IMG/VR virus record: IMGVR_UViG_3300029825_000751
Coordinates: 1-35,209 of that record
DNA length: 35,209 nt
Strand: one strand, 5' to 3'
From: a virus
Taxonomy: Duplodnaviria > Caudoviricetes
Shown: positions 7,397 through 28,380 of the stretch, piece by piece
How positions within the stretch are numbered: position 1 is the first letter of the stretch
Layout of the letters: each line of letters starts with the position of its first letter
Program-made: the position numbers and the translations under genes
The notes under the pieces: model-generated
The model's database searches: none
What the model was told of the DNA's origin: nothing
Seen by the model: the letters and a program-made list of their open reading frames with translations, nothing else

Positions 7397-7870
7397 ATGA
7401 TGAAAACATTACAGATTACTGAGTCAAATGCGCGTAAGTTGTACAATGATGCAACACCGGAGTTTAAAACAACATTGGAAGATACTTTCGGCAAGGAATT
7501 TTTCTCACAGAAGATTACCGATCGCGTGAAAACGTACAGGGACGCCTGCCATGAAACGGGCGAAACGCCGATTATCGAGGAAAACATGAGGGTAGCCGGT
7601 TTTACAGAGGACGAAATAAATTACCGGAAGCTTAAAACAATCACGAAAGCCTTAAACGAGGGCTGGGTTCCCGATTGGACTGACGATGACGAATCAAAAT
7701 GGATCCCGTGGTTTGGGTGGTCCTCTTCGGGCTTCGCGTTCTGCGATACGGATTGCAGCTACTCGCATACGGATGCGGGTAACGGCTCGCGCCTTTGCTT
7801 TAAAAGCGACGAATTAGCCACCTACGCCGGCAAGCAGTTTGCCGACATCTATAAAGGGTTTATGTTTTAA
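7397..7870 (+). CDS. DGR target protein 1 (small early-region protein, paralog of target 2)
   Basis: Contains VR1; shares DRVKT, ALNEGW.PDW, W.PWFG, SRLCFK and YAG.QF motifs with 7890-8276. Confidence 0.9.
   Translation: MMKTLQITESNARKLYNDATPEFKTTLEDTFGKEFFSQKITDRVKTYRDACHETGETPIIEENMRVAGFTEDEINYRKLKTITKALNEGWVPDWTDDDESKWIPWFGWSSSGFAFCDTDCSYSHTDAGNGSRLCFKSDELATYAGKQFADIYKGFMF
7715..7799 (+). repeat. Variable repeat VR1
   Basis: 85-nt ungapped match to TR1 with 11 mismatches at TR adenines (e.g. AAC>TGC, AAT>GAT, AAT>CAT) and one T>G at the 5' edge. Confidence 0.95.
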
Positions 7871-7889
7871 CAATTAATATTTACACACA

Positions 7890-8276
7890 ATGAAAGAAAA
7901 AGAAGTAAAAAGAGATGTAACCGAAAGGGTGAAAACTTTCGAAGATGCCCAAGCTGAGACGGGGCGCCCTGGCGTACCGGAATTTTCCGATGTTCCGGAG
8001 GACATGCGGCCCTATTTCAAAGCACAGTATAAGATTGTGGTGATTGCCCAGGCCCTTAATGAGGGATGGAAACCGGATTGGACGAACGGCAATCAGAAGA
8101 AATGGGTTCCCTGGTTTGGGTTGTCCTCTTCGGGCTTCGCGTTCGGCGTTACGGTTTTCAACTGCTCGAATGCGGCTGCGGGTAACAGCTCGCGCCTTTG
8201 CTTCAAAACGGAAGCGCTGGCAAATTATGCGGGACGTCAGTTTGTTGAAATTTGGGATGAATTATTGCAAAAATGA
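7890..8276 (+). CDS. DGR target protein 2 (small early-region protein)
   Basis: Contains VR2; paralog of target 1. Confidence 0.9.
   Translation: MKEKEVKRDVTERVKTFEDAQAETGRPGVPEFSDVPEDMRPYFKAQYKIVVIAQALNEGWKPDWTNGNQKKWVPWFGLSSSGFAFGVTVFNCSNAAAGNSSRLCFKTEALANYAGRQFVEIWDELLQK
8118..8202 (+). repeat. Variable repeat VR2
   Basis: 85-nt ungapped match to TR1 with 13 mismatches, all at TR adenines (AAC>GGC, GAT>GTT, AAT>GTT, TAC>TTC, AAT>GCT and others). Confidence 0.96.
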
Positions 8277-8283
8277 TTGAAAC

Positions 8284-8483
8284 AGGCGGCCGGACTTTGT
8301 GGGTTGTCCTCTTCGGGCTTCGCGTTCAACGATACGAATTACAACTACTCGAATACGAATGCAGGTAACAGCTCGCACCTATGCTGAAAGATATTCAAAG
8401 TCCGGAACCTTGCCTCTCGGCAAAAGATAACTTATTTGAAAGGTGCCGGTAGGGAAACCGAACGCTCCGAATAGAAAGCAAAG
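8284..8483 (+). ncRNA. DGR template RNA 1 (TR1 plus structured flanks)
   Basis: CCGGACTTTG (8290-8299) pairs with CAAAGTCCGG (8396-8405) around TR1; hairpin TTGCC-TCTC-GGCAA (8410-8423); ends in AAGCAAAG (8476-8483). Same layout as the TR2 flanks. Confidence 0.75.
8301..8385 (+). repeat. Template repeat TR1
   Basis: Intergenic, rich in AAC/AAT codons (21 adenines), matches VR1 and VR2, directly upstream of the RT. Confidence 0.96.
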
Positions 8484-8490
8484 GAAAAAG

Positions 8491-9477
8491 ATGAAACGGA
8501 TAGGAAATTTATATGATAGTATTTGCAGCCTTGACAACCTTGCCCTCGCGTATCAAAAAGCGAGGCAAGGCAAGGCTATGCAATACGGCGTAAGGCTCTT
8601 TGAAAAGAATGCGGATGCCAATATCCGGCAAATTCAGGAGGAGCTGCAAAACGGTACTTACCGGACATCGGAATACAGTGTCTTCACGATATTTGAACCG
8701 AAAGAACGCGAGATATCCCGCCTTCCATTCCGTGACCGGGTCGTCCATCATGCGATTATGAATATCATGGAGCCGATATGGACAAGCATTTTCATCCGGA
8801 ATACTTACTCCTGCATCAAAGGGAGGGGCATCCACGACGTTTTATATCATTTGAAACGCGACTTAAAAGATGTGGAAAATACCCGTTATTGCCTGAAGAT
8901 TGACATTCGCAAGTTTTACCCAAGCATCGACCACGATATCTTAAAGGTAATAATCCGGAAAAAGATTAAAGATATCCGTCTATTGGGACTACTCGACGAA
9001 ATAATCGACAGTGCACCAGGCGTGCCAATTGGCAACTATCTATCCCAGTTCTTTGCGAACTTATATCTGTCGTATTTCGATCATTGGCTGAAAGAAGACA
9101 GAAAAGTTAAGTATTACTATCGCTATGCGGATGACATGGTGATATTGGCAGCGGACAAGGCATATCTGCATGGCTTACTGGTCGAGATTAATCATTACCT
9201 GGTCTCTCGCTTGAATCTGCGTTTAAAAAGCAATTATCAGGTGTTCCCGGTTGATGCACGCAGCATTGACTTTGTCGGGTATAGGTTTTATCATACGCAT
9301 ATCCTGATGCGTAAATCGATTAAAAAGCGGCTTTGCAGGAAAGCTGCTAAACTGAATAAAAAGGATTTAACAGAAAAAGAATACAGGCAACGGATTGCAT
9401 CCTGGCTCGGATGGGCAAAGCACTGTAATTCGCGTCACCTGCTTAAAACGGTAATAGGAAATGAAAAAGTTCTCTGA
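8491..9477 (+). CDS. DGR reverse transcriptase
   Basis: MKRIGNLY start; PFRDRVVHHA, LKIDIRKFYPSIDH, GVPIGNYLSQ (GxxxSQ, typical of DGR RTs), YRYADD catalytic motif, DFVGY; 328 aa with no endonuclease or RNase H domain. Confidence 0.96.
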   Translation: MKRIGNLYDSICSLDNLALAYQKARQGKAMQYGVRLFEKNADANIRQIQEELQNGTYRTSEYSVFTIFEPKEREISRLPFRDRVVHHAIMNIMEPIWTSIFIRNTYSCIKGRGIHDVLYHLKRDLKDVENTRYCLKIDIRKFYPSIDHDILKVIIRKKIKDIRLLGLLDEIIDSAPGVPIGNYLSQFFANLYLSYFDHWLKEDRKVKYYYRYADDMVILAADKAYLHGLLVEINHYLVSRLNLRLKSNYQVFPVDARSIDFVGYRFYHTHILMRKSIKKRLCRKAAKLNKKDLTEKEYRQRIASWLGWAKHCNSRHLLKTVIGNEKVL

Positions 9478-9778
9478 TTTTGGAATTAATACGCTTGAAA
9501 ACAAGCATGTTTTCGCTGTCCCTGTCGTTTCGATAGAAGAGCTGACAAATTGCGAAATAGAAGTATTGGACTATGAGTCGGGAGTTAAAACACGTCACGG
9601 TGAAGGACGCTACATTGTAAAAGTTAAGTATGAAGGCGTGGAGCGGAAGTTCTTTACAAATGCGGCTCCGATTAAAGAGGCATTGGATAAAGTAGATAAA
9701 AAGGATTTCCCTTTTTTGACAACAATTAAACAGCAACGCTTCGGAAGTGGAAGCGGAAAAACATTTTATTTTACATGA
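9461..9778 (+). CDS. Hypothetical beta-rich protein overlapping the RT stop; candidate DGR accessory factor
   Basis: 17-nt overlap with the RT 3' end; 105 aa; not helical or Avd-like. The role is inferred from position. Confidence 0.7.
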   Translation: MKKFSDFGINTLENKHVFAVPVVSIEELTNCEIEVLDYESGVKTRHGEGRYIVKVKYEGVERKFFTNAAPIKEALDKVDKKDFPFLTTIKQQRFGSGSGKTFYFT

Positions 9779-10047
9779 TTATGATTAATGAAGTATCGAA
9801 AAAAACGGGAATTCCGGTTAACGATTTGCTTGGCAAATCCCGTAAGCACGAGGTGTCATGCGTGAGGCAGTTATATTATAAGTTATTGAAAGAGAAAACG
9901 GGTTTTTCGACTGCAAAAGTCGCAGAACTATGCAGTAGGAATCATGCAACTGTTTTGTATGGGATTCGAAAAGTTAATGATATGTTGCAGATTGGGGATA
10001 AATACGCCGTTCGTATGTGGAATAAAATAAAAGATTTGGAAGCATGA
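9775..10047 (+). CDS. DnaA C-terminal (domain IV)-like HTH protein
   Basis: DLLGKSRKHEVSCVRQ...TGFSTAKVAELCSRNHATVLYGIRKV mirrors the DnaA RDHTTV HTH signature. Confidence 0.75.
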   Translation: MIMINEVSKKTGIPVNDLLGKSRKHEVSCVRQLYYKLLKEKTGFSTAKVAELCSRNHATVLYGIRKVNDMLQIGDKYAVRMWNKIKDLEA

Positions 10048-10325
10048 AGAATAAAGCGAAACAGGAGGTTGATTTTTATAAAACAGTTATTTCGGCTCGA
10101 TGGCGAAATGAACGATTTATTATGACACAGGCGGTTATGCATTATGGCATGTCTGGTATAAATAAATCTGATTTTACTTTTGAAGATGAAAAGGTAAAAA
10201 ATTACAGTCGCAAAATGTTTACGGTAAGATGTAGAGGCAAGTTGCTCTTCAGGCGCTTTCCGGCAGACTTGCACGGGCTGTGTTTTAAATACGAAAGCCC
10301 TATTTTTAACAACGTAACGGAATAA
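10044..10325 (+). CDS. Hypothetical protein
   Basis: 93-aa ORF with an ATGA overlap. Confidence 0.55.
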   Translation: MKNKAKQEVDFYKTVISARWRNERFIMTQAVMHYGMSGINKSDFTFEDEKVKNYSRKMFTVRCRGKLLFRRFPADLHGLCFKYESPIFNNVTE

Positions 10326-10330
10326 ATGCT

Positions 10331-10729
10331 ATGATTATCGCAGTAGATTTTGATGGAACAATAGTGAAAGATCGTTATCCGGGGATCGGTGATCCCCGCC
10401 CGGGAGCGATTGAAACTCTTCGGAAATTAAAGAAAGAAGGTTACATCCTCGTGCTGTGGACTTGCCGTACAGGAAAAGAACTCGCACAGGCGGTGAAATT
10501 TTGCGCCGAGGCCGGCATCCGGTTCGATGCGATTAACGAAAACTTGCGTTACCGGGTTATCGAGCATCGGGGTAGTGATCCGCGGAAGCTGGGCGCGGAT
10601 TTATATATCGATGACAGGGGCCTTATCGACATCCCAAATTGGGATGAGATATATAAGATCGTGCATCGCCGGGTGCCGGATCAACTTGAGAGGCTCGATA
10701 TGTCGTATGGATTTCCGCCGGAATATTGA
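10331..10729 (+). CDS. HAD-superfamily hydrolase/phosphatase
   Basis: Motif I IIAVDFDGT, motif II LWTCR, motif IV YIDDR. Confidence 0.85.
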   Translation: MIIAVDFDGTIVKDRYPGIGDPRPGAIETLRKLKKEGYILVLWTCRTGKELAQAVKFCAEAGIRFDAINENLRYRVIEHRGSDPRKLGADLYIDDRGLIDIPNWDEIYKIVHRRVPDQLERLDMSYGFPPEY

Positions 10730-10757
10730 TAAAAATGACTTTTTGATTACAATTCGT

Positions 10758-10789
10758 CGCTCCGGTTTGTGAAAATAGGGGCGGTTTTT
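10758..10789 (+). terminator. Possible terminator of the early operon
   Basis: CGCTCC/GGGGCG imperfect stem followed by a T5 run after the last early gene. Confidence 0.35.
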
Positions 10790-10884
10790 ATAACAAGGTG
10801 ATGAAAAGCAGGAAATAATCCCGCTTTTTCAGTGTATTATGAAAACAATTGAGTAATTTTACAAAAGGGTATTAATTCAAAAAT

Positions 10885-11274
10885 ATGTTTATGAAAAAGA
10901 TTCTATTAATGTTATCCTGCATGGCTATATTAGCAGGTTGTAGTAAATCGGAGAATGAGCCGGAAGTAATTAAAAATGATTATGCTAATACTAAGTGGAC
11001 AGCAACTGATGATATCGCAGAATTAATTTACGGTAAAACCTGCACTACTACAATCGAATTCTTTGAGGATTACACCTGTCAAGAAATAAACAAGCGTGTA
11101 GGAATGAAATTCGGAGCGGGGACATTTGTTGAGCCCGGAACTTACAAGTTGAAAAAGGACTCTATTTATTGGACTATCGGTAAAAATACAATCGGGGGTA
11201 TTGCAAAAGGAAGTGTTTTAGCGACTAATATGGGGACGGTTTCAGGAGGAAAAAGAACTTATACTAAAGAATAA
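10885..11274 (+). CDS. Lipoprotein moron (start may be 10891)
   Basis: Signal MKKILLMLSCMAILAG-C (lipobox), then a beta-rich lipocalin-like body. Confidence 0.8.
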   Translation: MFMKKILLMLSCMAILAGCSKSENEPEVIKNDYANTKWTATDDIAELIYGKTCTTTIEFFEDYTCQEINKRVGMKFGAGTFVEPGTYKLKKDSIYWTIGKNTIGGIAKGSVLATNMGTVSGGKRTYTKE

Positions 11275-11275
11275 T

Positions 11276-11302
11276 AAAAAGCAACTTTGTAAAGCTGCTT
11301 TT
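11276..11302. terminator. Probable bidirectional terminator between convergent genes
   Basis: AAAAGCA-ACTTTGTAAAGC-TGCTTTT inverted repeat between the stops at 11274 and 11301. Confidence 0.5.
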
Positions 11303-11762
11303 ACTGACTTGCGGTTTGATCTTCAAACGCGGTTCGAAATACAATTTGATAGATAAACAGCCCATTGCGGCTGTTTTCTTTTTGTTGTGACATTCGGGAG
11401 AGCGGCTCAAAATCGGGGGTACTCCAGCCTTGTAGGGCCGCGTAAGTATCGGCGATGATATCGTATGGTTTAAGAGCCGCAGGGGCAACGGCGGGCGGAG
11501 CATCCGCGCTTGTTCGCATTTCTTGATTAAACGCAAGGCGGACGGTTATTCGGGCGTCGCAGTCCTGATCAAAATCGGTAATGTCTTCCGCTCCCGGAAT
11601 TGAAATGACAATTAGAGCACACGGAAAAGCGATCGCAGGGCGGTCGATGTTTTGATTTAATGCCGACACTCTTTCGAGTTGCCCCGTGTCAAGATCTATC
11701 CAGCGCAATTCCTTTACTTCTTTTTTCAATCGTGCCATGATGGCGGTGTAAACTGTTTTCAT
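11301..11762 (-). CDS. Mu gp37-like tail terminator/completion protein
   Basis: WIDLDTGQL...PAIAFPCALI...ALQGW pattern; last gene of the head/neck operon. Confidence 0.6.
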   Translation of the reverse strand: MKTVYTAIMARLKKEVKELRWIDLDTGQLERVSALNQNIDRPAIAFPCALIVISIPGAEDITDFDQDCDARITVRLAFNQEMRTSADAPPAVAPAALKPYDIIADTYAALQGWSTPDFEPLSRMSQQKENSRNGLFIYQIVFRTAFEDQTASQ

Positions 11763-11778
11763 ATCGTTTAAATAGTAA

Positions 11779-12279
11779 TTAATTATCTTTTAAAATGCGG
11801 GTAAATTCCTTTTTAATCTTCGTATTTATGTTCCCAATTAGGACAGCCGATCGGCCGACAAAACGGCGTTGCGGCATCTGAAATTCTTTCTTCCCGTATA
11901 TTTTTGCCCGCCCCCCGTAATTATGTACATGTGCATACGGTTTGTCGTTGCTTATACGAACGCCTCGGTCGGTACGCCGGAAGGTGATTGAATTTTGCAG
12001 TTCGCGTGTTTCTCCTGATAAAACCGGAGCGGTAGTACGTGCCTGCGAAAATCTACCTGTTTGACCGCTATGCCCATACCAGGAACTATCGGGATTCCTT
12101 CGCTTGACATCCTTCCAAGGATTTAATACTTTATCCGTAAACCCTTCGTCGGCAAATGACTTTTTATAGTGGTTTACAGCTTCCACCCCAACAATATTCT
12201 TTATGTCGTCTCCGGAGGCGAACTCCTTTATTTTATCCATTTTCGAGGTGAAACGCCTGTTAAACTCGTTGATATCCAT
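11779..12279 (-). CDS. Phage virion morphogenesis protein (Mu gpG-like)
   Basis: LSGETRELQNSI, YAHVHNYGG and MPQRRFVG motifs. Confidence 0.82.
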   Translation of the reverse strand: MDINEFNRRFTSKMDKIKEFASGDDIKNIVGVEAVNHYKKSFADEGFTDKVLNPWKDVKRRNPDSSWYGHSGQTGRFSQARTTAPVLSGETRELQNSITFRRTDRGVRISNDKPYAHVHNYGGRAKIYGKKEFQMPQRRFVGRSAVLIGNINTKIKKEFTRILKDN

Positions 12280-12296
12280 TTTTTTGTTTGAAAAAT

Positions 12297-12398
12297 CTTG
12301 TTATTATCAAATAGTTTTGTACATTTGCCTAAAATAAACGTCTTTAATGAGGCGCACGTTGTTGAAAAGCGTGTTAGCTGATTTAAAGACGTTTATTT
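12297..12398 (+). ncRNA. Candidate promoter plus hairpin small RNA, antisense to the head operon
   Basis: CTTG (12297-12300), 19 nt, TACATTTG (12320-12327), then a 16-bp perfect inverted repeat (12332-12347 / 12383-12398) with an inner stem. Confidence 0.5.
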
Positions 12399-14846
12399 CT
12401 TTATAATTATATTGATGGCGTATGGCTGTTCCACGCCGTTTATTACTTCCGTATTTAGCCTCAAATTCACGCCTTTGAAGTAAAGCTTGTAGTAGTAATA
12501 TTTCTCTACTCCGCGCCGTTTTTTTGATGCATAATTCGGACTCTCTATATTTAATGCCGCTTCGCTCAGGAACTGTGCACGGTCGATAATCTGAAAGATA
12601 TCCTTTGCCAGTTCTTTCATGTGCAATTCGGTAAAATGTCCCGTGATGCTTTTTATAGCCCTTTTAGTTACCAGTACCTGCCCGGTTTTGAAATTTTCCT
12701 TTTGAAGCTGTATGCCGAATTGTGGAATATGCTTCTTTGTCCACTCTTTTATTTCGCGATCTTTCTGCCGACGGCGGTACTGTTTGGCGAATTCGATTAC
12801 TTCGTCCCGTATTTCATCTGCCGTTTCGGAAAAATAAGGCGTATTGGAAATCTTTACGAATTCAGCCGTTTTGCCGGGATTGTTTTGAAACTCGGGCGGT
12901 ACAAATTCACCTCCCGGCACAGGCGTAACATCTTTGTCTGTCGGTTGTACCCGGCAGGCACAATTCCAATCCGATGGCGGCATGTGAGTATCCCACCACG
13001 GATGTTGAATCGGAAGAATCGTACCGACGTATTCCAAATGCGTCTCGCGTTTGTTCTTTGCCGTACTGATAAGATATTCGAGATTGGGATACAGATGTTC
13101 CGTTTCGAGATACTTTTTATAATTCACGGCGGCGCGGGCGGATCGTATGGCGGTGTTATACTCGGTTTGTAACCAGTTGACATTATAGTCCTTTGATATT
13201 TGCAACGCCTGTTTTTTAAACTCCCGGAATGAACGTAAATTACCCTCTTCATCATGTAATAGGGCTGCAATCTCTTTCGTTTGTTGATGATTCTTAAATG
13301 CCGCAAACACAGAAGTATTTGTCTTAAACTCATCGACAAAATCCTGTTTCTTCTTTCCGAATTCCGGCTCCTCTGAAAAAACCTTATCAATGCCTTGCTG
13401 TAACGCGTCGTCGGTAATTTTAAAGAGTTTTTTATTTACTACTTCGTCGTTACCGCCGTACACCTCTTTTAGCGCCTCGTTTAGTAATTTGCCCAGGTCG
13501 ATGGAGTAACTGTCGCTTTCGTTATCTTTTAGCGTTACGCGGCCCGTAATACCGTCGATTAACCGCCTCGCGAAGCTTGTTTGTGTGCCCCGCTCCTTTG
13601 TCGGGGCGACTGCGAAAAAACGGTCGAAGAGTTTTTTGCTTTTTGGGCTACCAGGCTCATCCAGATCCGGATCATCGTCGGGTTCGGACTTTGTAGCTTG
13701 CGTACTGCGTTTTGCGATAACATCATCTTTCTCGGCTGCCGGGATGCCAAATTTTTCTTGAAAATAGTAAGCCGGTATCTCAATGACATCGGAGAGCGAT
13801 ATAAGTTCATCAACTGTCAGTCCTTGTATAGCCTTCGGAAATACAAACGATCCGCCGGAAACATTATACCCCCGCCGTTCGAGTATAGGTTTCAGTTTGT
13901 GATTCAGAACGCGCTGGACAAAGCGTAGATCGGATTTATTTACTTCTTCTTCGACCTCTTTATGCACTTGACCCTGCGATCGGCTTGCCCCATCCTTTGT
14001 TGTCATCGTTTGTGACAAAATTGTTATGAGCAGTTGTTCGTCGCAAGTTTCGATGAAGTCTTTGTATAAGGTGCCGCCTCCGTTCCCGGATTGAGTGGTC
14101 GTTTCGACATCCGTTTCCTTTGGCACGATAAGTGTTGCTGCCGCGCCTTGATTGTTAAAAGCATCTTGAAGCGCCTTGCGTGCTTCAACATCGTAAATGC
14201 TATATTTGCCGATTCGGAGTGGCATACCAAACAGTTCAACCATTTGCGCCCAATCACCGAAACCGCCACGCTTGAATATCGCATAGGGACATGCACGAAG
14301 GATTAACCCATGTTTGTGCTCACGCGAGATCACTTCGATTACATCCATGTCGGCATAGGATATTTGCCCTTCAGGGTCATTTTCCATTTTGGCGATCATC
14401 TTTGTCTCAGGACGTATATGTTTTCGAGGAACGGAATACACGTGCATTCCGGTTTCATCGAACGAAGGCTGTATCACGGACATATACCAAAACTTCGCTT
14501 TGGTTACTTCTTGTAATAAATACTCGAAATCTTCCGTGTCAATCAGGTCTATCATTTCCTCGCTTTCCTCGCCGTCCTGATACTGAAATGTGAGGTCTGC
14601 GCCTGTGACGGCCCGGATGCGTTTGTCTATCGCATCGCCCAGTACAGGGTCATCTATGACATCCTCATACATATTAAGAAGTTGCGTACGACGCCCCATG
14701 TCTGCGGCTTGGAGGGCCGTTCGCCATTTTCCAATATCGAGTATTTGTCGATTTACCGGCCTAACCTCGATTTGATTTACAATGATTTGCTGTTGTTTAG
14801 CAGTTGCCGTCAGTTGCTTTGTATTTTGTTTTCGTCTCCTTGACAT
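12393..14846 (-). CDS. Portal protein (Mu gp29/DUF935-like) fused to a MuF/gp30 head morphogenesis domain and a C-terminal extra domain
   Basis: Portal motifs DWAQMVELFGMP and ILSQTMTT...GASRSQGQVH; MuF motifs NWLQTEYNTA, HPWWDTHMPPSDWNCAC and FQNNPGKT; about 120 further aa after MuF. Confidence 0.87.
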   Translation of the reverse strand: MSRRRKQNTKQLTATAKQQQIIVNQIEVRPVNRQILDIGKWRTALQAADMGRRTQLLNMYEDVIDDPVLGDAIDKRIRAVTGADLTFQYQDGEESEEMIDLIDTEDFEYLLQEVTKAKFWYMSVIQPSFDETGMHVYSVPRKHIRPETKMIAKMENDPEGQISYADMDVIEVISREHKHGLILRACPYAIFKRGGFGDWAQMVELFGMPLRIGKYSIYDVEARKALQDAFNNQGAAATLIVPKETDVETTTQSGNGGGTLYKDFIETCDEQLLITILSQTMTTKDGASRSQGQVHKEVEEEVNKSDLRFVQRVLNHKLKPILERRGYNVSGGSFVFPKAIQGLTVDELISLSDVIEIPAYYFQEKFGIPAAEKDDVIAKRSTQATKSEPDDDPDLDEPGSPKSKKLFDRFFAVAPTKERGTQTSFARRLIDGITGRVTLKDNESDSYSIDLGKLLNEALKEVYGGNDEVVNKKLFKITDDALQQGIDKVFSEEPEFGKKKQDFVDEFKTNTSVFAAFKNHQQTKEIAALLHDEEGNLRSFREFKKQALQISKDYNVNWLQTEYNTAIRSARAAVNYKKYLETEHLYPNLEYLISTAKNKRETHLEYVGTILPIQHPWWDTHMPPSDWNCACRVQPTDKDVTPVPGGEFVPPEFQNNPGKTAEFVKISNTPYFSETADEIRDEVIEFAKQYRRRQKDREIKEWTKKHIPQFGIQLQKENFKTGQVLVTKRAIKSITGHFTELHMKELAKDIFQIIDRAQFLSEAALNIESPNYASKKRRGVEKYYYYKLYFKGVNLRLNTEVINGVEQPYAINIIIKK

Positions 14847-14848
14847 AA

Positions 14849-15259
14849 TTAAAAATGATTGTTGCGTTTTGGGTTTGAGTTAAATAAAATTATCCCCGTT
14901 TGCTTATCATTCGGGAGGGGTTCCAAGTCGGGAGTTACATCGCCTTTTTGTACCGATTTTAGCCAGTCGATCGCTCGCTTATATCGTTCCATCCGGAGGC
15001 CTAAATCCGTATTAACATTGCAGATATTTACGAAGTGCCAAACTGCGATATCTTTCAGGAAAATTACCAGAAGAGAGTTTCGACGGTTACCTTCTTTTTC
15101 GAATTCACCGGAGATATCATAAGCTCTGAGGTATCCTTTCGCTTCTGCGAGGGCTGCATCAATGGCCGACTGTAAAATAGTGTCATCGCCGTTTGTTATC
15201 ACGTTGATTTGCTCCTGATACAGATGTGTTTTTATTTCGTCAATCGTTACGTAACTCAT
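14849..15259 (-). CDS. Mu gp36-like (DUF1320) head-tail adaptor
   Basis: AEAKGYL...DIAVWH...RYKRAIDWLKSVQKG pattern. Confidence 0.8.
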   Translation of the reverse strand: MSYVTIDEIKTHLYQEQINVITNGDDTILQSAIDAALAEAKGYLRAYDISGEFEKEGNRRNSLLVIFLKDIAVWHFVNICNVNTDLGLRMERYKRAIDWLKSVQKGDVTPDLEPLPNDKQTGIILFNSNPKRNNHF

Positions 15260-15576: not shown

Positions 15577-15577
15577 T

Positions 15578-17143: not shown

Positions 17144-17144
17144 G

Positions 17145-17613: not shown

Positions 17614-17723
17614 CGAAACTACTTTTTACCCGCTTCAGAAGGAAAAAGTGTATTAAGGGTTAGAACGATCGTTATAAGGGTTAATACACTTTTTGTTTTT
17701 TCCGCCCTACTGCCATTCCTTTG
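17614..17723. promoter_or_regulatory. Symmetric divergent late-promoter region
   Basis: A 14-bp perfect inverted repeat (17643-17656 / 17681-17694) and the palindrome AACGATCGTT (17664-17673) share one axis. Degenerate -7 boxes lie on both strands (17614-17621 minus, 17716-17723 plus), each centred 51 bp from the axis. Confidence 0.65.
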
Positions 17724-18706: not shown

Positions 18707-18762
18707 TCTGCTAACTCGCGGTTATTAAACAAACATTTTAACAATAACAAACTTACTTAACG

Positions 18763-19818: not shown

Positions 19819-19824
19819 TAGCAC

Positions 19825-20540: not shown

Positions 20541-20932
20541 AAAAATTTATCGGTATATTTTTGTTAGTTGTCATCCTGACGGGATGCAAGACACAAAAGG
20601 TATTCGTTCCTGTTGATCATGTTACAACCGAGTATCGCGATCGATACAAACTCGACAGTATCTACTATCGAGATACGATAGAGATTACCAATGCAGGGGA
20701 TACAATTTTTAAAAATGTCATCCGGTGGCGTGAGCGGTTTATAAGGGATACGGTATATCAGTCTCGCACTGATAGCATTCCGGTTATCATTGAAGTTGAA
20801 AAGGAAATCCCCGTAAACTACTTAACGAAATGGCAAACGATTCGGATATGGATCGGAAACATTATACTTATTATTCTTGCCGCACTTGTCGGTTGGAAAC
20901 TGATTAAACTGTATTTAAAACTCAAAAAATAA
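20537..20932 (+). CDS. Candidate unimolecular spanin
   Basis: N-terminal lipobox (ILTG-C), beta-rich middle, C-terminal TM (IWIGNIILIILAALVGW); lies inside the lysis cassette. Confidence 0.6.
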   Translation: MKKFIGIFLLVVILTGCKTQKVFVPVDHVTTEYRDRYKLDSIYYRDTIEITNAGDTIFKNVIRWRERFIRDTVYQSRTDSIPVIIEVEKEIPVNYLTKWQTIRIWIGNIILIILAALVGWKLIKLYLKLKK

Positions 20933-20937
20933 AAATT

Positions 20938-21447
20938 ATGGCAGAAAAAACAATTGCAAAACTTCGGGTTGTCGAAACTGAGTTTGCCGATCCGATCGCT
21001 AACGAGGCGGGAATCGCTACCGCTATATGGGCGAAACAGCCCTTAACATATAGGGAAGATGCTGTTGAAATCGTACAAGGGGAGCCGGAGGAAGAACCAT
21101 TATACTCTCATGAGAACGATGCACCTGAGGACGTAGATTATGCAGGCACCGGAGTGTCTGCAACAGGCTCTTTTATTAAAGCTACACGCGAGCAGATGGT
21201 GGGTCTTATGGGCGGTAGTGTAGTCGGTGAAGGCGAAGCTGCACAGTATGCGCATCCTGCAAGTCTTTTAACTCTTAACAAGGCTATTCGTTTTACTTGC
21301 AAGGACGGGTCTAAAGTGATTATCCCTAACGCAAAAGGGTATGTCCTCTTGAACTTGAATATAGGTAAGGGCGGTTTGGGTAAATTTCCTTTTAGATTTA
21401 ATTGCCAAGCCGCATCTCCCGATTGGAAATGTGATATTTTGCTTTAA
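20938..21447 (+). CDS. Probable major tail tube protein
   Basis: 169-aa acidic, beta-rich ORF upstream of the chaperone pair and tape measure. Confidence 0.6.
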   Translation: MAEKTIAKLRVVETEFADPIANEAGIATAIWAKQPLTYREDAVEIVQGEPEEEPLYSHENDAPEDVDYAGTGVSATGSFIKATREQMVGLMGGSVVGEGEAAQYAHPASLLTLNKAIRFTCKDGSKVIIPNAKGYVLLNLNIGKGGLGKFPFRFNCQAASPDWKCDILL

Positions 21448-21448
21448 T

Positions 21449-21910
21449 ATGGATGCACGGTTAAAAGCGGCAAACGCAATATTGGAAAGGGGCGTGCGGT
21501 TTAGGCTGCCCGCCCCTTTTTACAAGCGATGGCTGAAAAAAGATTACGTAACAATCCGTCACCTGAAAGCGGGCACCATCTTGGAGATTTCGAGCGTGGT
21601 ATTGAATTCGAAATTAGAGGAAGCCATTACACTTGGTGATTATGAGTTCCTGCATAAAGCTATCGAACCTTGTGCCCGGTGTATTGCTATCGCGATTTTG
21701 AATGATAAGCGCGATATCGAAAAGAAAGCAGGGAGGCTTACGAAACGGCTTTTGTGGAAGGTTAGCGATGAAAGCATGATTGATATTTTCCTGAAAATAT
21801 CAATCATGAATCGCGTATCGGATTTTACGATTATTACCAGATACCTGTTGAATCAGATGATGACGATGATGAGCAGGAAGAATTTGGGGCAAGTGGACGA
21901 CGGGAGTTAA
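21449..21910 (+). CDS. Tail assembly chaperone (gpG-like)
   Basis: ATG at 21449 right after the tube gene stop; lies between tube and tape measure. Confidence 0.6.
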   Translation: MDARLKAANAILERGVRFRLPAPFYKRWLKKDYVTIRHLKAGTILEISSVVLNSKLEEAITLGDYEFLHKAIEPCARCIAIAILNDKRDIEKKAGRLTKRLLWKVSDESMIDIFLKISIMNRVSDFTIITRYLLNQMMTMMSRKNLGQVDDGS

Positions 21911-21918
21911 AAGGCCGG

Positions 21919-22116
21919 ATGACAGGCCTGCATAGCCCGTGGGGATTATTGGGCGAGATAATGAAGGAACGCGGATATACGCATGATTATGTTTTATGGG
22001 GTGTTTCCTGGATAAATTTATTGATGGAGCGGGCCGATGCTCCGAGATATACAAAAAAACAGTTTGCACCTTTCGTGGATGGGGCAGGCGGATTAAAACA
22101 ACGATTAAGACGATAA
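21919..22116 (+). CDS. Tail assembly chaperone extension (gpT-like), probably reached by -1 frameshift
   Basis: In the -1 frame relative to 21449-21910, and open upstream across that gene's stop. Confidence 0.55.
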   Translation: MTGLHSPWGLLGEIMKERGYTHDYVLWGVSWINLLMERADAPRYTKKQFAPFVDGAGGLKQRLRR

Positions 22117-22120
22117 CGGT

Positions 22121-25100
22121 ATGGCAGAGGAACCGGTTGAAATAGATATTAATTTACGGCAAAACGTCGATACGGAAGCGGACAAAGCTTCCGAGGCGAT
22201 TGCGCGGCTTACGGCAGAAAGCAATCGTGCACAGGAGAATGCTTCGCGGATGATTATCGTGCAGCGGGATGTAGTCGCCCGGCTGAAAACAGAGATTGAA
22301 TCGCTGCAAAAGTCGTTTAGTAATATCTCTGTCGATACCGGCGATGAAAAGGCGGTAAAATGGCGGCAGGAAACGTACCAGCAAATTCGTTCGCTCAATA
22401 TCGAATTGACAAAGCAGGAAGGCATTCTCTCCGAACTGGAAACAAGAAATAGTGCGCTCGGGGAAACAAAAGCAAAGCTTATCGGAGAAATAGAGGGGGT
22501 TGGTACTGCAATGAAAAATCTTACTGCCTTGGGACGCAATGAGAGCGAGCAATACAAAGAATTGGAAGCGCAACTCGGGACACTCGCGGATGCGTATCTT
22601 TCCGTTCAGGATGAGCAGGATAAGATTGTTGAGGCCCGTGTGAATCTTGAATCGTTTTCCGATTCTTTAAACGGTGTGTCGGATTCGATTCAAAACGGCG
22701 TTAAGGAATTCGGAACTGCGTCGGATAAGACGTCGGAATTTACGGATAGCCTCGAGGCGGTCGGCAAAGCGCAGGCGGTTGTCGAAGCCGGGCAAAAAAC
22801 AGTTAACGATACTGTTAAAGAGACGGCACAAGCTACCCGTAGCGCCTCGCAAGAAACGCAGAGATGGTCTGCATTAAATCAAATTCTTGCTAAAACATTC
22901 AATATTTCCAATGCCGCCGCGCAGCGGTTGATTTCAACCCTGTCGCTTGGATTAGGTGTTGCAATATCCTTTGTGACAAAATTAATTCAAAAGCAAATAG
23001 AGAAATGGCAAGAAACAAAACGCGAACTCGAAGAATATAATAAAGCGACCGCCTCAAATGCTGCGTCTCAAACTGCAAACTATGAAAAACTACGCTCATC
23101 ATACAATAAGCTGGGCGATGATGTTAAATCGAAAGAGAAATTTATACGCGATAATCAAACTGCTTTTAATCAGCTTGGCGTTGCGATAAATGATGTGAAT
23201 TCTGCTGATAATCTATTTATATCACAAACCGAAGCCTTTAAGTCTGCTATTGAGCAGCGTGCAAGAGCCGCTGCGGCTATGGATATGGCAACGGAAAAAT
23301 ATAAATCCGCCATGCAAAAACAATCGCAAGCCGATGAACGGGAAAAGAATCCTAACGCTTGGGAGCAGCTATCGACGGTATCTGATTTTTATGATCGAGA
23401 CGGCAAACAAGTTTTACGCAATAAGGGGGCTGTATCTTCTGCGGATAAAATACGTGAACAAGCACGAAAAGAAGAACAGGCTGCTAACGATTATGTTAAT
23501 CAGTCTGTGTCTTCACAGAAAAAGGCTGCGGAACAATTGAAAAACGCTAATATCGATGCCGCAAATGAACTAAAAGAAGGGACAAGGGTCTGGTGGAAAT
23601 GGCAAAAGGAAATTGCCCAGTCTCGATTGGATGCTTTGAAAGATACGGATAAGAACTCGGCAGAGTGGAATAAGTTGTCGGATGAAATCCTGACGGCGGA
23701 TAAGATGATTAAAACCTTTGATATAACCGGATCGGATAAAAAGTCGTCAACTGTAGCTAAAAAGAAAGAGACGGCTGAGCAAAAGCTACAAAAAATGGAA
23801 GTTGACATTCAAAAGGAGATTAATGCTTCCGTTGTGGCCGCTATGCAGGAAGGGCGAGACAAAAAGCTTGCAGAGTTGGAGGCTGATTATAATGCCCGTA
23901 AGGCTCTTATTCAGCAACGACAGAGTGAGATCGAACAACTTGAAAAAGATACCGGCGTCGATGGATCAACACAAAAAGCCGCATTGGACAAACTTTCTGA
24001 GAGCGAAACAAAGAAGTATAATGCACAGATTAAAGTTATAACAGACGGCTCCCAAAAGGCCCTTTCGGAAATTTGGAACGAAGTTAACTCGCGCTTTCGC
24101 ACTGAAACCCAAAATCGATTAAATGAAATAGATCTATTTTATAAAGAGCAAATCAAAAAAGCAAAAGAAAATGGGGCTACGCAGGAGCAACTCGATAACC
24201 TTTCCGTTTCCCATACCCGGGATATCGCACTCGAAAATCAGCAAATCGCCCTTGAGACGCTCGAATTTGCTTCACAGGTTGATATACGCCGTGCCCATAT
24301 ACAGGATAAACGCGTTTTGTTTGAGACGGATCGGGAAGAGAAAATATTAAAAATACAACTTGATTCAGCAAAGAAACGGCTTGCGAAGTTGGAGGACCTG
24401 CAATCTTCCGGAGTTGATTCCGGTAAGGATATCGAAGTCGCCAAAGTTGAGATCGAGGGGTTAAATGCAGAACTAAATAAAATGCCATCAAAGAAAATAG
24501 CTGAGGTGGCTGATAAGTTGCAACAGGCGTTCTCGGGAGTAGGAGACTTTGCAAGTGTTTTTGACGAAGATTTGGGTACCTTGTTTGATATGGCTTCCTC
24601 TGCGGCTGGAGGTATAGCCGATATCGCTTCCGGTAATTATATCCAGGGCGCACAAAAGCTACTGTCGACGGTTGGCAAAATTATAAATGCCAACAAGCAG
24701 GCAAATGAGGAGATTCGAAAGTTTAACCTCGATCTTGCGCAGCAGGCTATTGATTACAGCTTGGCTGTAATACGCGCTATTAAAGATGTAAAGAGTGAGA
24801 CGGATTCGATCTTTATCGATGATAGCACCAATACGCTCACGCAAGGCATGTCCGGTTATAACGCTGCAATTGAAAAGCAGTCCGAATTAATGAATCAGCT
24901 GGGAGATGCAACAGTTAAGACGGGTGTTAAAAAGAAGAAGTTTTTAGGAATAACTTATGGCACGAAGGACGTGTATTCTAATCTACTGAAATCTTATCCC
25001 AAATTAATCGATAAGGACGGGGCATTGAACCGGGAACTCGCCGAAACGCTGCAAGCTTCCGGCAATCTGAACGGTGAAACGCAAAAACTAATTGATAATA

Positions 25101-25774
25101 TTTTACAGGCACAGGATGCCGCCAACGAGGCGATGCAGGCCGTGGAAAGCAAACTACAAAGCCTTGTTGGTTCTATCGGAACACAATTAAAAGATGTGCT
25201 TGATGATGCGTTTGCGTCCGGTACGGATTCGGCAAAGGCTATGAGGAATAACGTTATCGATATGCTTAAAAGCATTAATACGCAAAATCTTTTTAATGCT
25301 GTATTCGGATCATTGTTCGCCAACCTCGAAGGACGAATGAAAGAAAGCTACGGCGAGGGCGGAGACCGAAATATATCGGACGATCTCGAGTGGTTCATGG
25401 GTGAATATCCTGAACTGGTCGGAGACTATAATAAAGGATTACAAGAACTTCAAAAAGCGATAAAGGAACAATATGGCGTCGATGCATTTGAGGCGGAAAG
25501 TACCCGCACGGCGGTGAATAAAGGTATCGCACAGGCGTCGCAGGACTCGTTTGATGAATTTAGCGGCCGTATGACTTTCCTCGTCATGAAAGTCTCCGGA
25601 ATCGGGACGATTAATACGTCTATACTCGATACGAATCGTGAGCAGTATGCAATTATGCAAGCGATGTTGAGCCATCTGGAAACGATATCGGAAAACAGCG
25701 AGTTTCTAAGAAATTTGAAGAATATTAAAGAAGACATCGCTAAGATGAGAGAGGGGATAATTCTAAAACGATGA
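22121..25774 (+). CDS. Tail tape measure protein
   Basis: 1217 aa, Ala/Gln/Glu/Lys-rich helical protein in the canonical position. Confidence 0.88.
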   Translation: MAEEPVEIDINLRQNVDTEADKASEAIARLTAESNRAQENASRMIIVQRDVVARLKTEIESLQKSFSNISVDTGDEKAVKWRQETYQQIRSLNIELTKQEGILSELETRNSALGETKAKLIGEIEGVGTAMKNLTALGRNESEQYKELEAQLGTLADAYLSVQDEQDKIVEARVNLESFSDSLNGVSDSIQNGVKEFGTASDKTSEFTDSLEAVGKAQAVVEAGQKTVNDTVKETAQATRSASQETQRWSALNQILAKTFNISNAAAQRLISTLSLGLGVAISFVTKLIQKQIEKWQETKRELEEYNKATASNAASQTANYEKLRSSYNKLGDDVKSKEKFIRDNQTAFNQLGVAINDVNSADNLFISQTEAFKSAIEQRARAAAAMDMATEKYKSAMQKQSQADEREKNPNAWEQLSTVSDFYDRDGKQVLRNKGAVSSADKIREQARKEEQAANDYVNQSVSSQKKAAEQLKNANIDAANELKEGTRVWWKWQKEIAQSRLDALKDTDKNSAEWNKLSDEILTADKMIKTFDITGSDKKSSTVAKKKETAEQKLQKMEVDIQKEINASVVAAMQEGRDKKLAELEADYNARKALIQQRQSEIEQLEKDTGVDGSTQKAALDKLSESETKKYNAQIKVITDGSQKALSEIWNEVNSRFRTETQNRLNEIDLFYKEQIKKAKENGATQEQLDNLSVSHTRDIALENQQIALETLEFASQVDIRRAHIQDKRVLFETDREEKILKIQLDSAKKRLAKLEDLQSSGVDSGKDIEVAKVEIEGLNAELNKMPSKKIAEVADKLQQAFSGVGDFASVFDEDLGTLFDMASSAAGGIADIASGNYIQGAQKLLSTVGKIINANKQANEEIRKFNLDLAQQAIDYSLAVIRAIKDVKSETDSIFIDDSTNTLTQGMSGYNAAIEKQSELMNQLGDATVKTGVKKKKFLGITYGTKDVYSNLLKSYPKLIDKDGALNRELAETLQASGNLNGETQKLIDNILQAQDAANEAMQAVESKLQSLVGSIGTQLKDVLDDAFASGTDSAKAMRNNVIDMLKSINTQNLFNAVFGSLFANLEGRMKESYGEGGDRNISDDLEWFMGEYPELVGDYNKGLQELQKAIKEQYGVDAFEAESTRTAVNKGIAQASQDSFDEFSGRMTFLVMKVSGIGTINTSILDTNREQYAIMQAMLSHLETISENSEFLRNLKNIKEDIAKMREGIILKR

Positions 25775-26724
25775 TAGCAGGTAGTTGTATAGTTGACGGT
25801 ACCGATATCGGCACCTTGGGGGCGTTTATCGAACAGGACGGGTCGGATGATTTCCTTTCGTTCCCAGATCGTCGTACGCCTGATCAAAATGATTGGGCGG
25901 AGCACGACGGGTTGGATGTTGATTTATCTGATTTATCTTTTGACGCAAAAAAAGTGACAGTGAACTACGTGATGATTGCCAATGATGAAACAACGTTTAA
26001 ACGGAACTTAAATGCCTTTAAAACGATGCATTTTGCTACCGGTTACCGATCTGTTTTTGTAAAAGAATTTAACCGGACATTCCATCTGCGTTTTGTAGGA
26101 TTTGCGAATTATTCTCATAAGGGCGGTCTTGCGAAGTCCGGCAAAAAGACGGGAAAAATCACAGTCGAGTATAACATGGATGATCCGTTGCAGTTTTTTA
26201 CCCCCGCTATCGATACGCCTATTTCAACGCGGACAACATTGTCGTACGTGACACTTAACGGCATTGACCTGTCACGATTCGGGATTGTTGTCCGTGATAT
26301 CTACTCGACTGTACTGCGCCCTCATTCGGCAAAAGCACGTTTGGAACGAAAAATAAATGATGTAAGCGGAGTGATAGCTGATACCGGTATTATACCATCG
26401 AGGCAGGGTCGGCAGATCACGATTGAGTGTGTTATGATGGCTGGAACATTATCGGAGTTTATGACTAACTACAACGCGCTGTTTAATAATCTTCGAATTA
26501 TAAAACCTGTGAAACTTGGAATAACCCGTACTGCTACTATGATACAATGTTATTATTCAAAGATGTCCGGTTTAAAAAAAGAAACACCTTTCTCCAGAAA
26601 GATAAAAATGAGCTTTAATCTGATTTTACAAGAGGTGACACTTATGCAGTTGTTGCGCTTGTTATCTTCGCAGCGAGGGTTAATAGTGACGGAAGATTAT
26701 AATTATATCGAATTGAATTATTAA
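25771..26724 (+). CDS. Distal tail (Dit-like) protein
   Basis: Directly after the tape measure; two internally similar halves (VDGTDIGTLG / LNGIDLSRFG). Confidence 0.6.
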   Translation: MIAGSCIVDGTDIGTLGAFIEQDGSDDFLSFPDRRTPDQNDWAEHDGLDVDLSDLSFDAKKVTVNYVMIANDETTFKRNLNAFKTMHFATGYRSVFVKEFNRTFHLRFVGFANYSHKGGLAKSGKKTGKITVEYNMDDPLQFFTPAIDTPISTRTTLSYVTLNGIDLSRFGIVVRDIYSTVLRPHSAKARLERKINDVSGVIADTGIIPSRQGRQITIECVMMAGTLSEFMTNYNALFNNLRIIKPVKLGITRTATMIQCYYSKMSGLKKETPFSRKIKMSFNLILQEVTLMQLLRLLSSQRGLIVTEDYNYIELNY

Positions 26725-26728
26725 ATAT

Positions 26729-28114
26729 ATGACAGATATACAAAAAACAAGAATAATTGAATTACCTGATGCGACATCGTTGAGGGGGGGGTACACAGTT
26801 GCCGACGATGGTGTGAAAACGTCAAAAGTAAGTCTTGAATTCCTCGAATCCGCCGCGTCGGGGCATCTCGGTTGGTACGGTGTCGAGCGGGATTCGTCGA
26901 TAGCCAATTCGGCATGTACAAGGATAGGCAAACATGAGTTACATGTAGCGCTTCCTATACAAAACCGGATGCGGCGTTGCCTGCTCCGTGATGACGGGAC
27001 AGTAAGATACTACCTGCACCCTAATGACAGTTCGAAAACAGATACGGGAATGCCGGCTGACTTATCCGGTGCACAGGGTCAGGTAATGGTAGAAATACCG
27101 GAACATTACTGCCGTTTCGAAACGGAAGGAACCATTTCACGCGTGAAGTTCTCGGAGTTTCCAATACCGGGGTTTCATAAAGTGCAAAAATGTTACGTCT
27201 CTGCTTATGAGGCAAGCGTGCAACGTTCAACAAATAAATTATCATCTGTTGTAAATCTTTCAGCTGATTATCGGGGAGGGGGCAATCAGTCCGGTTGGGA
27301 CGGAACCTTCCGCACCCAGTTAGGCCGGCCGGCTACGAATATTTCGCTTACAAACTTCCGTACTTATGCCCGTAACCGTGGGGCAGCGTGGAACTGCTAT
27401 GTGTACGATGTGCATAAGACGGTTACTTGGTTATATTTTGTTGAATATGCTAATTTAAATTGCCAGCTTGAGTTTAACCCCTCCTTGAACATAAATGGTT
27501 ACAGGCAAGGCGGATTGGGACAGGGGGTAACAAATATGTCGAACTGGGATTTGTTCGGGTATTATCCGGTTATCCCGTGCGGAACGACCAATAGCCTCGG
27601 AAATAAATCCGGAGTAATAAGCTATATAGTAAATAAAAATGATGAAGGAACAAATCAACAGGTATTGAATGTGCCGTCTTATCGAGGTATTGAAAATCCG
27701 TTCGGGCACGTGTGGAAATGGATGGACGGATGTAAATGCCGTATTCAGGCAGATGGTGCAGGGGGGCTCTCTGAATTTTACGTATGCGACAATCCTTCCG
27801 CTTTTCAAAGCGACAACTATGATGGATATGTTTTGCGGGGTGTGCTTCCGCGAGAAGAAGGGTATGTGAAGCGGGTTATGGCGGGCGAGTGGGGCGATAT
27901 TATGCCGGCTGAAACAGGCGGTAGTTCGGTTACGTATTTCTCCGATTACTACTATACGTCTATACCCGGTTCAGGGGAATCACAGAGGGGCGTTCTGGTC
28001 GGTGGCCTTGCGCATGACGGTGCGAGTGCGGGTCTCGTTTATGCGCTTACGAATAACGCGCCTTCGAATGCGCTTGCGACGATCGGTTCCCGGCTTTGCT
28101 TTTCCCCCGCGTAG
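26729..28114 (+). CDS. DGR target protein 3: tail fibre/receptor-binding protein with C-terminal CLec-type domain
   Basis: YRGIENPFGHVWKWMDG and RGVLVGG...GSRLCF motifs; VR3 occupies the extreme C-terminus; lies in the tail module. Confidence 0.9.
   Translation: MTDIQKTRIIELPDATSLRGGYTVADDGVKTSKVSLEFLESAASGHLGWYGVERDSSIANSACTRIGKHELHVALPIQNRMRRCLLRDDGTVRYYLHPNDSSKTDTGMPADLSGAQGQVMVEIPEHYCRFETEGTISRVKFSEFPIPGFHKVQKCYVSAYEASVQRSTNKLSSVVNLSADYRGGGNQSGWDGTFRTQLGRPATNISLTNFRTYARNRGAAWNCYVYDVHKTVTWLYFVEYANLNCQLEFNPSLNINGYRQGGLGQGVTNMSNWDLFGYYPVIPCGTTNSLGNKSGVISYIVNKNDEGTNQQVLNVPSYRGIENPFGHVWKWMDGCKCRIQADGAGGLSEFYVCDNPSAFQSDNYDGYVLRGVLPREEGYVKRVMAGEWGDIMPAETGGSSVTYFSDYYYTSIPGSGESQRGVLVGGLAHDGASAGLVYALTNNAPSNALATIGSRLCFSPA
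27988..28100 (+). repeat. Variable repeat VR3
   Basis: 113-nt ungapped match to TR2 with 13 mismatches, all at TR adenines (AAT>CTT three times, AAT>CAT, AAC>GAC, AAT>AGT, GCA>GCG, AGT>GGT, CAG>CGG, CTA>CTT). Confidence 0.96.
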
Positions 28115-28119
28115 CGGGG
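28105..28119 (+). promoter_or_regulatory. GC-rich hairpin just downstream of VR3 (DGR target-recognition-like)
   Basis: CCCCGC-GTA-GCGGGG: 6-bp GC stem with a 3-nt loop, 4 nt after the VR end. Confidence 0.7.
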
Positions 28120-28141
28120 CGAACGCGTCCGGTAAAAATAT

Positions 28142-28380
28142 AGGCTGTTTGCTTTTGGGCGTTCTGGTCGGTGGCAATGCGAATAACGGTGCGAATGCAG
28201 GTCTCGTTTATGCGAATACGAATAACGCGCCTTCGAATGCGAATGCGACGATCAGTTCCCAGCTATGCTGAAGAAATATAAATAAAAGCAAAGGCCTTGC
28301 CGCTTGGCAAAAGATTACATTTAGTTATAAGGGTATTAGTATTCCGGATTCGGGAAAAAGTTCCCTATAAACAAGCAAAG
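28142..28380 (+). ncRNA. DGR template RNA 2 (TR2 plus structured flanks)
   Basis: TTTGCTTTT (28148-28156) pairs with AAAAGCAAA (28284-28292) around TR2; hairpin TTGCC-GCTT-GGCAA (28297-28310); ends in AAGCAAAG (28373-28380). Confidence 0.75.
28157..28269 (+). repeat. Template repeat TR2 (no adjacent RT)
   Basis: Intergenic, rich in AAT/AAC codons (26 adenines), matches VR3 but not VR1 or VR2. Confidence 0.96.

Follow-up and report, generated by a model that had tools for sequence, protein, structure and literature searches.

Two templates with a common RNA scaffold, likely served by a single reverse transcriptase, in a diversity-generating Mu-like prophage

Can the reverse transcriptase (RT) of a diversity-generating retroelement (DGR) serve a second template repeat (TR) that lies far from it and has a target of its own? 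The question is raised by an IMG/VR provirus record, IMGVR_UViG_3300029825_000751, whose whole length of 35,209 bases (hereafter the window; rated 62% complete) was analyzed. The window holds one RT gene, two different templates (TR1 and TR2), and three target genes whose variable repeats (VR1 to VR3) are copies of one template or the other. We found that the two templates have a common RNA scaffold and that each rewrites its own targets, and we consider it likely that the phage's single RT serves both.

Two templates, three targets, and one RT gene

The DGR features of the window described here lie on the plus strand. TR1 (8301..8385; 85 nucleotides, 21 adenines) precedes the RT gene (8491..9477) and matches VR1 (7715..7799) and VR2 (8118..8202), in target genes 1 (7397..7870) and 2 (7890..8276), respectively. 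TR2 (28157..28269; 113 nucleotides, 26 adenines) matches VR3 (27988..28100), at the C terminus of target 3 (26729..28114, in the tail module). A first-pass annotation of the sequence had reported these pairings with 11, 13, and 13 adenine mismatches, and we confirmed them. The 11 TR1-VR1 mismatches at template adenines are accompanied by one at a non-A position (8305, at the 5' edge), and the chance of such a restriction to adenines is 1.7e-7. TR1 and VR2 differ at 13 adenines and nowhere else (2.8e-10), and TR2 and VR3 differ at 13 adenines and at none of 87 non-A positions (2.7e-10). All three VRs lie near the 3' ends of their genes, and no further VR with at least 16 consecutive non-A matches was found in the window.

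TR1 and TR2 are homologous, with 47 of 85 bases identical when anchored at the 3' end, and are 19.8 kb apart rather than about 19 kb as first estimated. Their likeness, initially placed mainly at the 3' end, thus covers more of the template, and the whole flanking scaffold is common as well. Compared crosswise, TR1 and VR3 showed mismatches at 28 of 64 non-A positions, and TR2 showed 27 of 63 with VR1 and 26 of 63 with VR2. Thus, neither template can serve the targets of the other.

The RT gene encodes 328 amino acids (aa) and carries the DGR-type motifs GxxxSQ (GNYLSQ at 181) and YxDD (YADD at 212); such a motif is cited as DGR typical (PMC12386605), and the protein matched phrog_1423 with an E value of 1e-132. 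A six-frame search of the window with PF00078, up to an E value of 1, gave this single match, and a profile of 123 related RTs run with --max returned the same locus only. As the first-pass annotation had noted, TR2 is followed only by an open reading frame (ORF) of 104 aa (28405..28719; phrog_11557, a weak match).

In 203 stored TR-VR pairs, a redundant set, the last two template adenines face near-fixed VR bases (T in 196 of 203, G in 201 of 203); the near-fixed T opposite the last adenine is what a comparison of the initiation-of-mutagenic-homing sequences (IMH and IMH*) showed. Consequently, about 19 positions are free to vary under TR1 and about 24 under TR2, so that the nucleotide spaces of 4^21 and 4^26 proposed earlier are too high and lie nearer 4^19 and 4^24. 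The corresponding amino acid spaces, near-fixed codons included, are 1.9e11 and 1.6e14.

Activity of the RT-less template

In order to evaluate whether TR2 still acts on VR3, we compared the window with contigs from 4 of 11 listed sequencing runs (X2, X3, X4, and X5). X2, which may be the source of the window, and X3 carry the window alleles and are uninformative on variation. The X4 and X5 contigs are identical and were therefore counted as one strain. Over 1,501 bases of the tail locus, this strain differs from the window at 15 positions, 14 in VR3 and 1 elsewhere. All 14 VR3 differences stand opposite TR2 adenines (P 3.5e-11) and cause 9 amino acid changes. One contig, which covers 28113-28800, showed no difference from the window, so TR2 and the RT-less junction behind it are common to both strains. 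Over 2,301 bases of the early cassette, all 29 differences fall within VR1 or VR2, 13 of 14 and 13 of 15, respectively, at TR1 adenines, and none is listed in TR1 itself. Adenine-specific variation, by which the first-pass annotation had proposed to recognize an active system, is thus seen between strains at all three VRs. An invariant VR3, which would have marked TR2 as a fossil, was not what we observed: VR3 varies solely at TR2 adenines, and TR2 is unchanged.

A longer time span is covered by a relative, L001, that has the same order of tail gene, VR, TR, and ORF with a co-linear RT-less junction. Its tail gene differs from that of the window at 77 of 120 fourfold sites (64%), which is near saturation. 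The two templates differ at 13 of 113 positions, and at 10 of 10 sites where the difference is between non-A bases each VR follows its own TR. The same tracking was found at 17 of 17 such sites between the window and a second relative, G354. Since the window and L001 both lack the tail RT, TR-to-VR copying outlasted the RT gene there. It is presumably mutagenic, given that simple gene conversion would remove the adenine differences as well. Together, these comparisons show, at the level of sequence, that TR2 is active, rewriting VR3 at adenines, and is not a fossil.

The common RNA scaffold

In an alignment of 41 elements, a 13-pair stem encloses the TR and is followed by two more stems downstream, and a further helix, between the 3' end of the TR and the bases immediately ahead of the RT start, crosses the enclosing stem as a pseudoknot. 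Around TR1, the 5' arm of the enclosing stem is at 8284..8297, and the 3' scaffold (8386..8483) comprises the other arm, a hairpin, an internal-loop stem, and a tail complementary to the TR 3' end. Around TR2, the 5' arm is at 28142..28155, and the 3' scaffold (28270..28380) has the same fold. A model of the 3' part gave exactly two matches in the window. Pairing was kept in 91% of alignment cells, with 21 of 31 pairs double-changed; none of 500 shuffles scored as high and slid controls reached 39-59%, a score that is favored by the structure having been drawn from the same 41 sequences. Folds of the single TR1 and TR2 RNAs were no better than shuffles (z 0.17 and -0.42), and thus it is covariation that carries the structure. 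For the crossing helix, just 1 of 6 pairs is double-changed in the alignment, and one hand-anchored position shows 26 C-G versus 7 T-A pairs; our guess is that this helix is the template-primer duplex. The conserved internal loop lies at 8441-8467 and 28329-28367. It resembles a bulged-G (loop E) motif and may be one.

The TR1 flank passes the Rfam RT-17 model (RF03020; 8406-8490) with 43.7 bits, against a cut-off of 40.4. This model, one of the RT motifs of PMC5737381, covers just the 3' flank of the scaffold. In the DGR RNA of BPP-1, as in the window, a duplex of upstream and downstream RNA surrounds the TR, whose 3' end pairs with a downstream strand; the flanking RNA of BPP-1 is reported to be needed for priming and stopping cDNA synthesis (10.1101/2023.10.23.563531). 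The BPP-1 coordinates given there describe nested helices, whereas in the window the helix of the TR 3' end crosses the enclosing stem. A BPP-1-type cassette also has its TR beside the RT, which holds for TR1 but not for TR2, and it encodes Avd, whereas a search of the window with PF22296 up to an E value of 1 gave no match. The window instead carries a 105-aa gene (9461..9778; phrog_19665) that overlaps the RT end. Its predicted structure (predicted local distance difference test [pLDDT] score, 91) is most similar, at a weak Z of 5.0-5.8, to single-stranded DNA-binding (SSB) and oligonucleotide/oligosaccharide-binding (OB) folds, and its homologues adjoin the RT or TR in both cassette types. 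From this model and context, the OB-like protein is a candidate accessory factor replacing Avd.

Which RT serves TR2

To ask what had become of an RT at the tail, we inspected 192 loci with homologues of target 3, a set that is redundant across collections. A TR followed by an RT was present in 108, an RT without a detected pair in 10, and a TR without RT in 6; of the remainder, 5 had a TR at the contig end, 31 ended too soon, and 32 had neither. Among relatives that have the RT, many show a homologue of the 104-aa ORF that begins inside the last RT codons, whereas in the window the ORF begins 24 bases past the scaffold, from which we infer that the tail RT gene was deleted and its RNA kept. 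The 24-nucleotide junction (28381..28404), where relatives have a 1-kb RT gene, resembles codons of the RT C terminus, and on this resemblance alone it may be what is left of the lost gene. The 105-aa gene is also missing from the tail module, so both the RT and the OB-like protein would have to come from the early cassette.

The layout of two templates and one RT is not confined to the window. It recurs in four other phages, each with one RT, which stands in the early region in two and, mirrored, at the tail in the other two. G354, a Mu-like provirus, repeats the window layout, with two small targets, a TR, an RT (75% identical), and an OB-like gene; 22 kb away, its tail gene has its own TR (19 A and 0 non-A mismatches) and no RT. 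L001 and L076 are co-linear, carry the same genome id, and have a single RT between the two records; together they apparently make another case of this layout. In the mirrored G393, an RT-less TR beside a target-1-like gene (11 A, 0 non-A) lies 2 kb before a complete tail cassette. The mirrored layout is also found in G333 (94% complete), where the RT at the tail is intact (325 aa) and a target-1-like gene lying 34 kb from it in the record adjoins a TR without an RT (14 A, 1 non-A). In a quick tail-protein tree of 30 rows, in which L011 was labeled RT bearing from an RT start at its contig end, the window and L001 were joined (support 99) inside an RT-bearing group that excludes G354. Three label changes are needed, so window/L001 and G354 lost the RT separately, which from the tree would make at least two tail-side losses, plus the mirror cases. 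The first-pass claim of two independent diversification programmes is supported by the 14 of 14 VR3 differences at TR2 adenines, by the way VR3 tracks its own TR over long divergence, and by a layout that recurs, mirror form included.

A second distinct template was absent from 21 early-cassette contigs read whole or nearly so, and the two-template layout is therefore uncommon. A search for phrog_5302 in 49 early-cassette records found 0, and no positive control responded. In a scan for the scaffold pattern that covered 27 of 64 parts, 80 hits had flanks, with a full RT in 75, a partly deleted RT in 2, and too early an end in 3; none of the 77 evaluable hits lacked all RT sequence, so scaffolds without an RT are rare elsewhere. 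Of 44 tail-homologue records, 19 carry a target-1-like gene, and when the 10 best such genes in tail-DGR phages were compared with the tail TR, 8 proved to be its remote VRs. The use of a single template for both targets is the common alternative. Among these remote VRs (L310, L311, and L313-L318), six use just the 3' 75 bases of the tail TR and two use about 105-111; judging from sequence, a TR1-type template looks like a 5'-shortened tail TR.

Shown in the window are an early-type cassette, with targets 1 and 2, TR1, RT, and the OB-like gene, and a second one of tail type, with target 3, TR2, and an empty RT slot. Two complete cassettes of differing RT lineages would have met in one phage, one RT being deleted and its RNA kept. 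The remaining RT would recognize the common scaffold rather than the template sequence and copy TR1 or TR2 into adenine-mutated cDNA. By sequence, the homology of each cDNA is limited to its own VRs, so the programmes do not cross, and the strain data show VR3 being rewritten from TR2. Variation in VR3 would retune the tail tip that binds the host receptor, and variation in VR1 and VR2 would retune two intracellular binding proteins, probably aimed at host defense or regulatory proteins. We consider service of TR2 by the phage's own RT likely.

Several points weigh against this assignment. The link between the RT and TR2 is inferred, and the RT searches covered a 62%-complete record, with the host genome outside it. 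The window RT falls in the early-cassette RT clade (Shimodaira-Hasegawa-like approximate likelihood ratio test [SH-aLRT] support, 100, in a quick tree of 55 of the 123 RTs after dereplication) and has a median identity of 62% to the tail-type RTs, so cross-lineage use has to be assumed; moreover, the RT is in the early region and TR2 in the late one. The TR2 flank scores 38.2 bits with RT-17, below the cut-off of 40.4, though over the full model length and with an E value of 7.5e-6, and one near-invariant G of its internal loop is an A. When a scaffold model, R1, was run over 99 phage records, 82 had a scaffold and 2 had two, and none of the 82 was a record with two templates and two RTs, the presumed intermediate. 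The strain evidence comes from one independent strain, represented by contigs with a depth of about 7-9. Three records of 53-85% completeness (G349, G348, and G053) likewise have TR/VR pairs that lack an RT, and no RT was found in them; an RT start or a damaged scaffold remains in them, and the pair in G349 (L393:4993-5171; targets 1 and 2, 15 A, 1 non-A) has an RT cut after about 15 codons. Finally, three large gut phages, L054 (11354-11572), L242, and L256, keep TR and VR but have the RT deleted at differing points. Their TR is almost identical to that of the RT-bearing L031, they are likely recent fossils, and their VRs differ only because the RT losses were recent and separate.

These three phages, together with crAss-like phages in which, according to PMC11054128, an RT was deleted and a TR left over, give precedents for reading TR2 as the fossil of an RT-less cassette with VR3 frozen. 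This reading is contradicted by the 14 of 14 strain differences at TR2 adenines across a common RT-less junction. It also has to account for 0 of 87 non-A mismatches despite the 64% fourfold divergence from L001, across which VR tracks TR at 10 of 10 sites, and we regard it as hardly tenable. The VR3 alleles might instead have been made in RT-bearing sibling phages with an identical TR2 and have reached the window phage by recombination. Most relatives do have a complete tail cassette (the 108 of 192 loci above), and strains are not alike in the 40 residues at the N terminus of target 3, so recombination occurs in the gene. Against this stand three collections in which no RT-bearing locus had a tail gene above 62% identity, an RT-less junction that is common with L001 at near-saturated fourfold sites, and strain differences confined to TR2 adenines. 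We consider a sibling origin very improbable.

A more serious alternative is that TR2 is active but is served by another, tail-type DGR RT in the host cell, encoded by a co-resident prophage or integrated element, and not, or not only, by the phage's own. In run X2, a 2,088-base contig carries a stretch that resembles TR2, with 16 differences over 94 positions, as well as RT-like stretches, and the depths are similar (7.9 versus 6.5). In addition, one Bacteroidales genome, G050, holds two complete cassettes, one of each type, on separate contigs; Bacteroides strains average 1.01 DGRs (10.1101/2024.11.15.621889); and RT-less pairs occur, as noted, in records without any RT found. At 80% likeness, no TR2-like contig was seen in X3, X4, or X5 and no second RT-like contig in X4 or X5; such absence is weak evidence, but the contigs seen in X2 indicate that the method is able to reveal them. 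In five phages, a template without an adjoining RT is accompanied by precisely one RT from its scaffold family, both orientations of the layout being represented, and a scaffold match was present in just 7 of 151 sampled Bacteroidales genomes, so a helper would seldom be present by chance. Thus, we think service by another RT unlikely and retain the phage's own RT as the probable enzyme.

Side observations in other loci concern the same elements. L241:2751-3141, on a 5-kb contig, has an RT-less tail TR (19 A, 2 non-A) with an intact scaffold and is a possible further satellite template. In L498 and L500, the RT is internally deleted and scaffold, TR, and VR are intact. In G037 (L296/L297), an early-type TR matches a third target-1-like gene about 20 kb away (69 nucleotides, 9 A, 1 non-A). 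Tandem duplications that include the TR have produced two near-identical TR copies in L120:3081-4395 and L226:11124-11628. Among gut phages L363-L410, some have the target 1/2 pair without TR and RT, and 23 of 78 loci have neither pair nor RT.

Phage context and known systems

The gene order in the window runs from repressor, transposase, and transposition ATPase (phrog_310, phrog_296) through Mu-type head genes, with Mu portal and gp36 (PF06074, PF07030), and a tail module to a DNA methyltransferase; by gene content, it is a Mu-like transposable prophage of Bacteroidales type. An environmental Bacteroidales host is suggested by a near-identical tail protein assigned to a "Porphyromonadaceae bacterium" and by the presence of fermentation metagenomes among the holders. 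Megablast of 7300-28500 against the phage records of the collection gave no match. L189:17372-21540 is a near-identical copy of the phage that diverges past window position 34100 and carries a truncated tail-gene fragment and pieces of lipoprotein-like paralogues. A 26-bp palindrome at 17643-17694 (85% complementary, no spacer) lies between divergent packaging and head operons.

Target 1 (156-157 aa; phrog_11581, annotated as of unknown function) belongs to the early operon, which suggests an intracellular role, and target 2 (128 aa) is its paralogue, 45% identical. The predicted structure of target 1 (pLDDT, 89) consists of a helical body plus a beta-hairpin and loop that carry the VR; it matched no solved fold in PDB (best Z, 4.2) and was similar only to uncharacterized viral proteins. 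Target 3 (461 aa) matches phrog_5302, "tail protein," with an E value of 5.9e-133, and its sequence matched nothing in PDB. Its first 40 residues (26729-26850) vary among strains, P0006 having an L001-type N terminus on an otherwise window-type protein. A GC-rich hairpin just 3' of VR3 (28105..28119) folds, with a z of 0.13, and is not kept in two relatives, and its role is uncertain; post-VR hairpins were no better than shuffles in 7 of 8 cases tested and are not conserved. A sigma-70 scan gave no plus-strand promoter near TR2. The motif TANNTTTG, which we take to be the Bacteroidetes -7 promoter motif, is absent near TR1 and TR2, and its overall count is at chance level.

Hankyphage is said to have a single tail-targeting DGR cassette. 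This Bacteroides phage, like that of the window, is a transposable Bacteroidales phage with a DGR (PMC6199706, PMC12135933). The first-pass annotation had held that multi-target DGRs normally reuse one TR, and this stands in part. Remote targets of one TR are published, and 216 of 271 multi-VR DGRs were reported to have a single TR, but several TRs per RT have been described as well (PMC12386605, PMC6642488). Quimbyvirus (PMC8008677), four induced prophages with a distal VR (PMC12629997), and the non-adjacent targets of PMC5758913 also combine one RT with a tail gene and a distant, apparently non-structural gene. In Quimbyvirus-type systems, the distal VR was found with the RT-adjacent TR, one template for both, whereas the window has a separate template and scaffold for each target class, and its VRs do not all match one TR. 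Several TRs with one RT, as in the window, occur in the Stenotrophomonas SKA14 DGR (PMC6642488) and in the zeta crAss-like phages Lera and ct1yV3, for which three TR-VR pairs are reported (PMC12386605). For Lera, pairs two and three, with 3 and 10 changes at non-A positions, were judged possibly defunct (PMC12386605), whereas the extra TR of the window lies 20 kb from the RT, shows no change at non-A positions, and is active by strain data. For degenerate loci of Thiohalocapsa PB-PSB1 that have no local RT, action in trans was proposed, as it is here for TR2; there, unlike in the window, VRs served in trans correspond to the TR at the complete locus, and where a locus had its own distinct TR, the explanation given was intact variants or past activity (PMC10907252). 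An RT-less TR-VR pair in Nostoc PCC 7120 was called a remnant (PMC7517822). TR, avd, and brt are reported to work in trans from a plasmid. We found no report of an active, distant, RT-less template with its own target, although supplements and subscription papers may hold one; that combination is what is new here, several TRs per RT and remote targets having been published already.

Because standard tools look within 10 kb of an RT and then use the TR found there as the query (PMC6602519, PMC8008677), they would miss pairs like TR2/VR3. RT-less TR/VR pairs were formerly read as remnants, and that of the window is active. The natural sequences examined here shift the DGR unit from one RT with one template toward one RT with any RNA that has the right scaffold. 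Tentatively, and with odds we would put somewhat below even, RT-less "satellite" DGR RNAs may form a class of non-autonomous retroelements, templates with RT-17-type scaffolds being read by any RT of the family, across RT lineages and possibly across co-resident prophages. If so, one enzyme would run several independent evolution programmes, and RT-centered surveys would overlook such templates. With two natural RNAs and one enzyme, RT-RNA specificity in DGRs without Avd becomes directly testable, and the system is a natural model for multiplexed targeted mutagenesis. For the phage, having two templates means that its tail tip and its early proteins need not have fixed residues in common, as they must in relatives with a single template.

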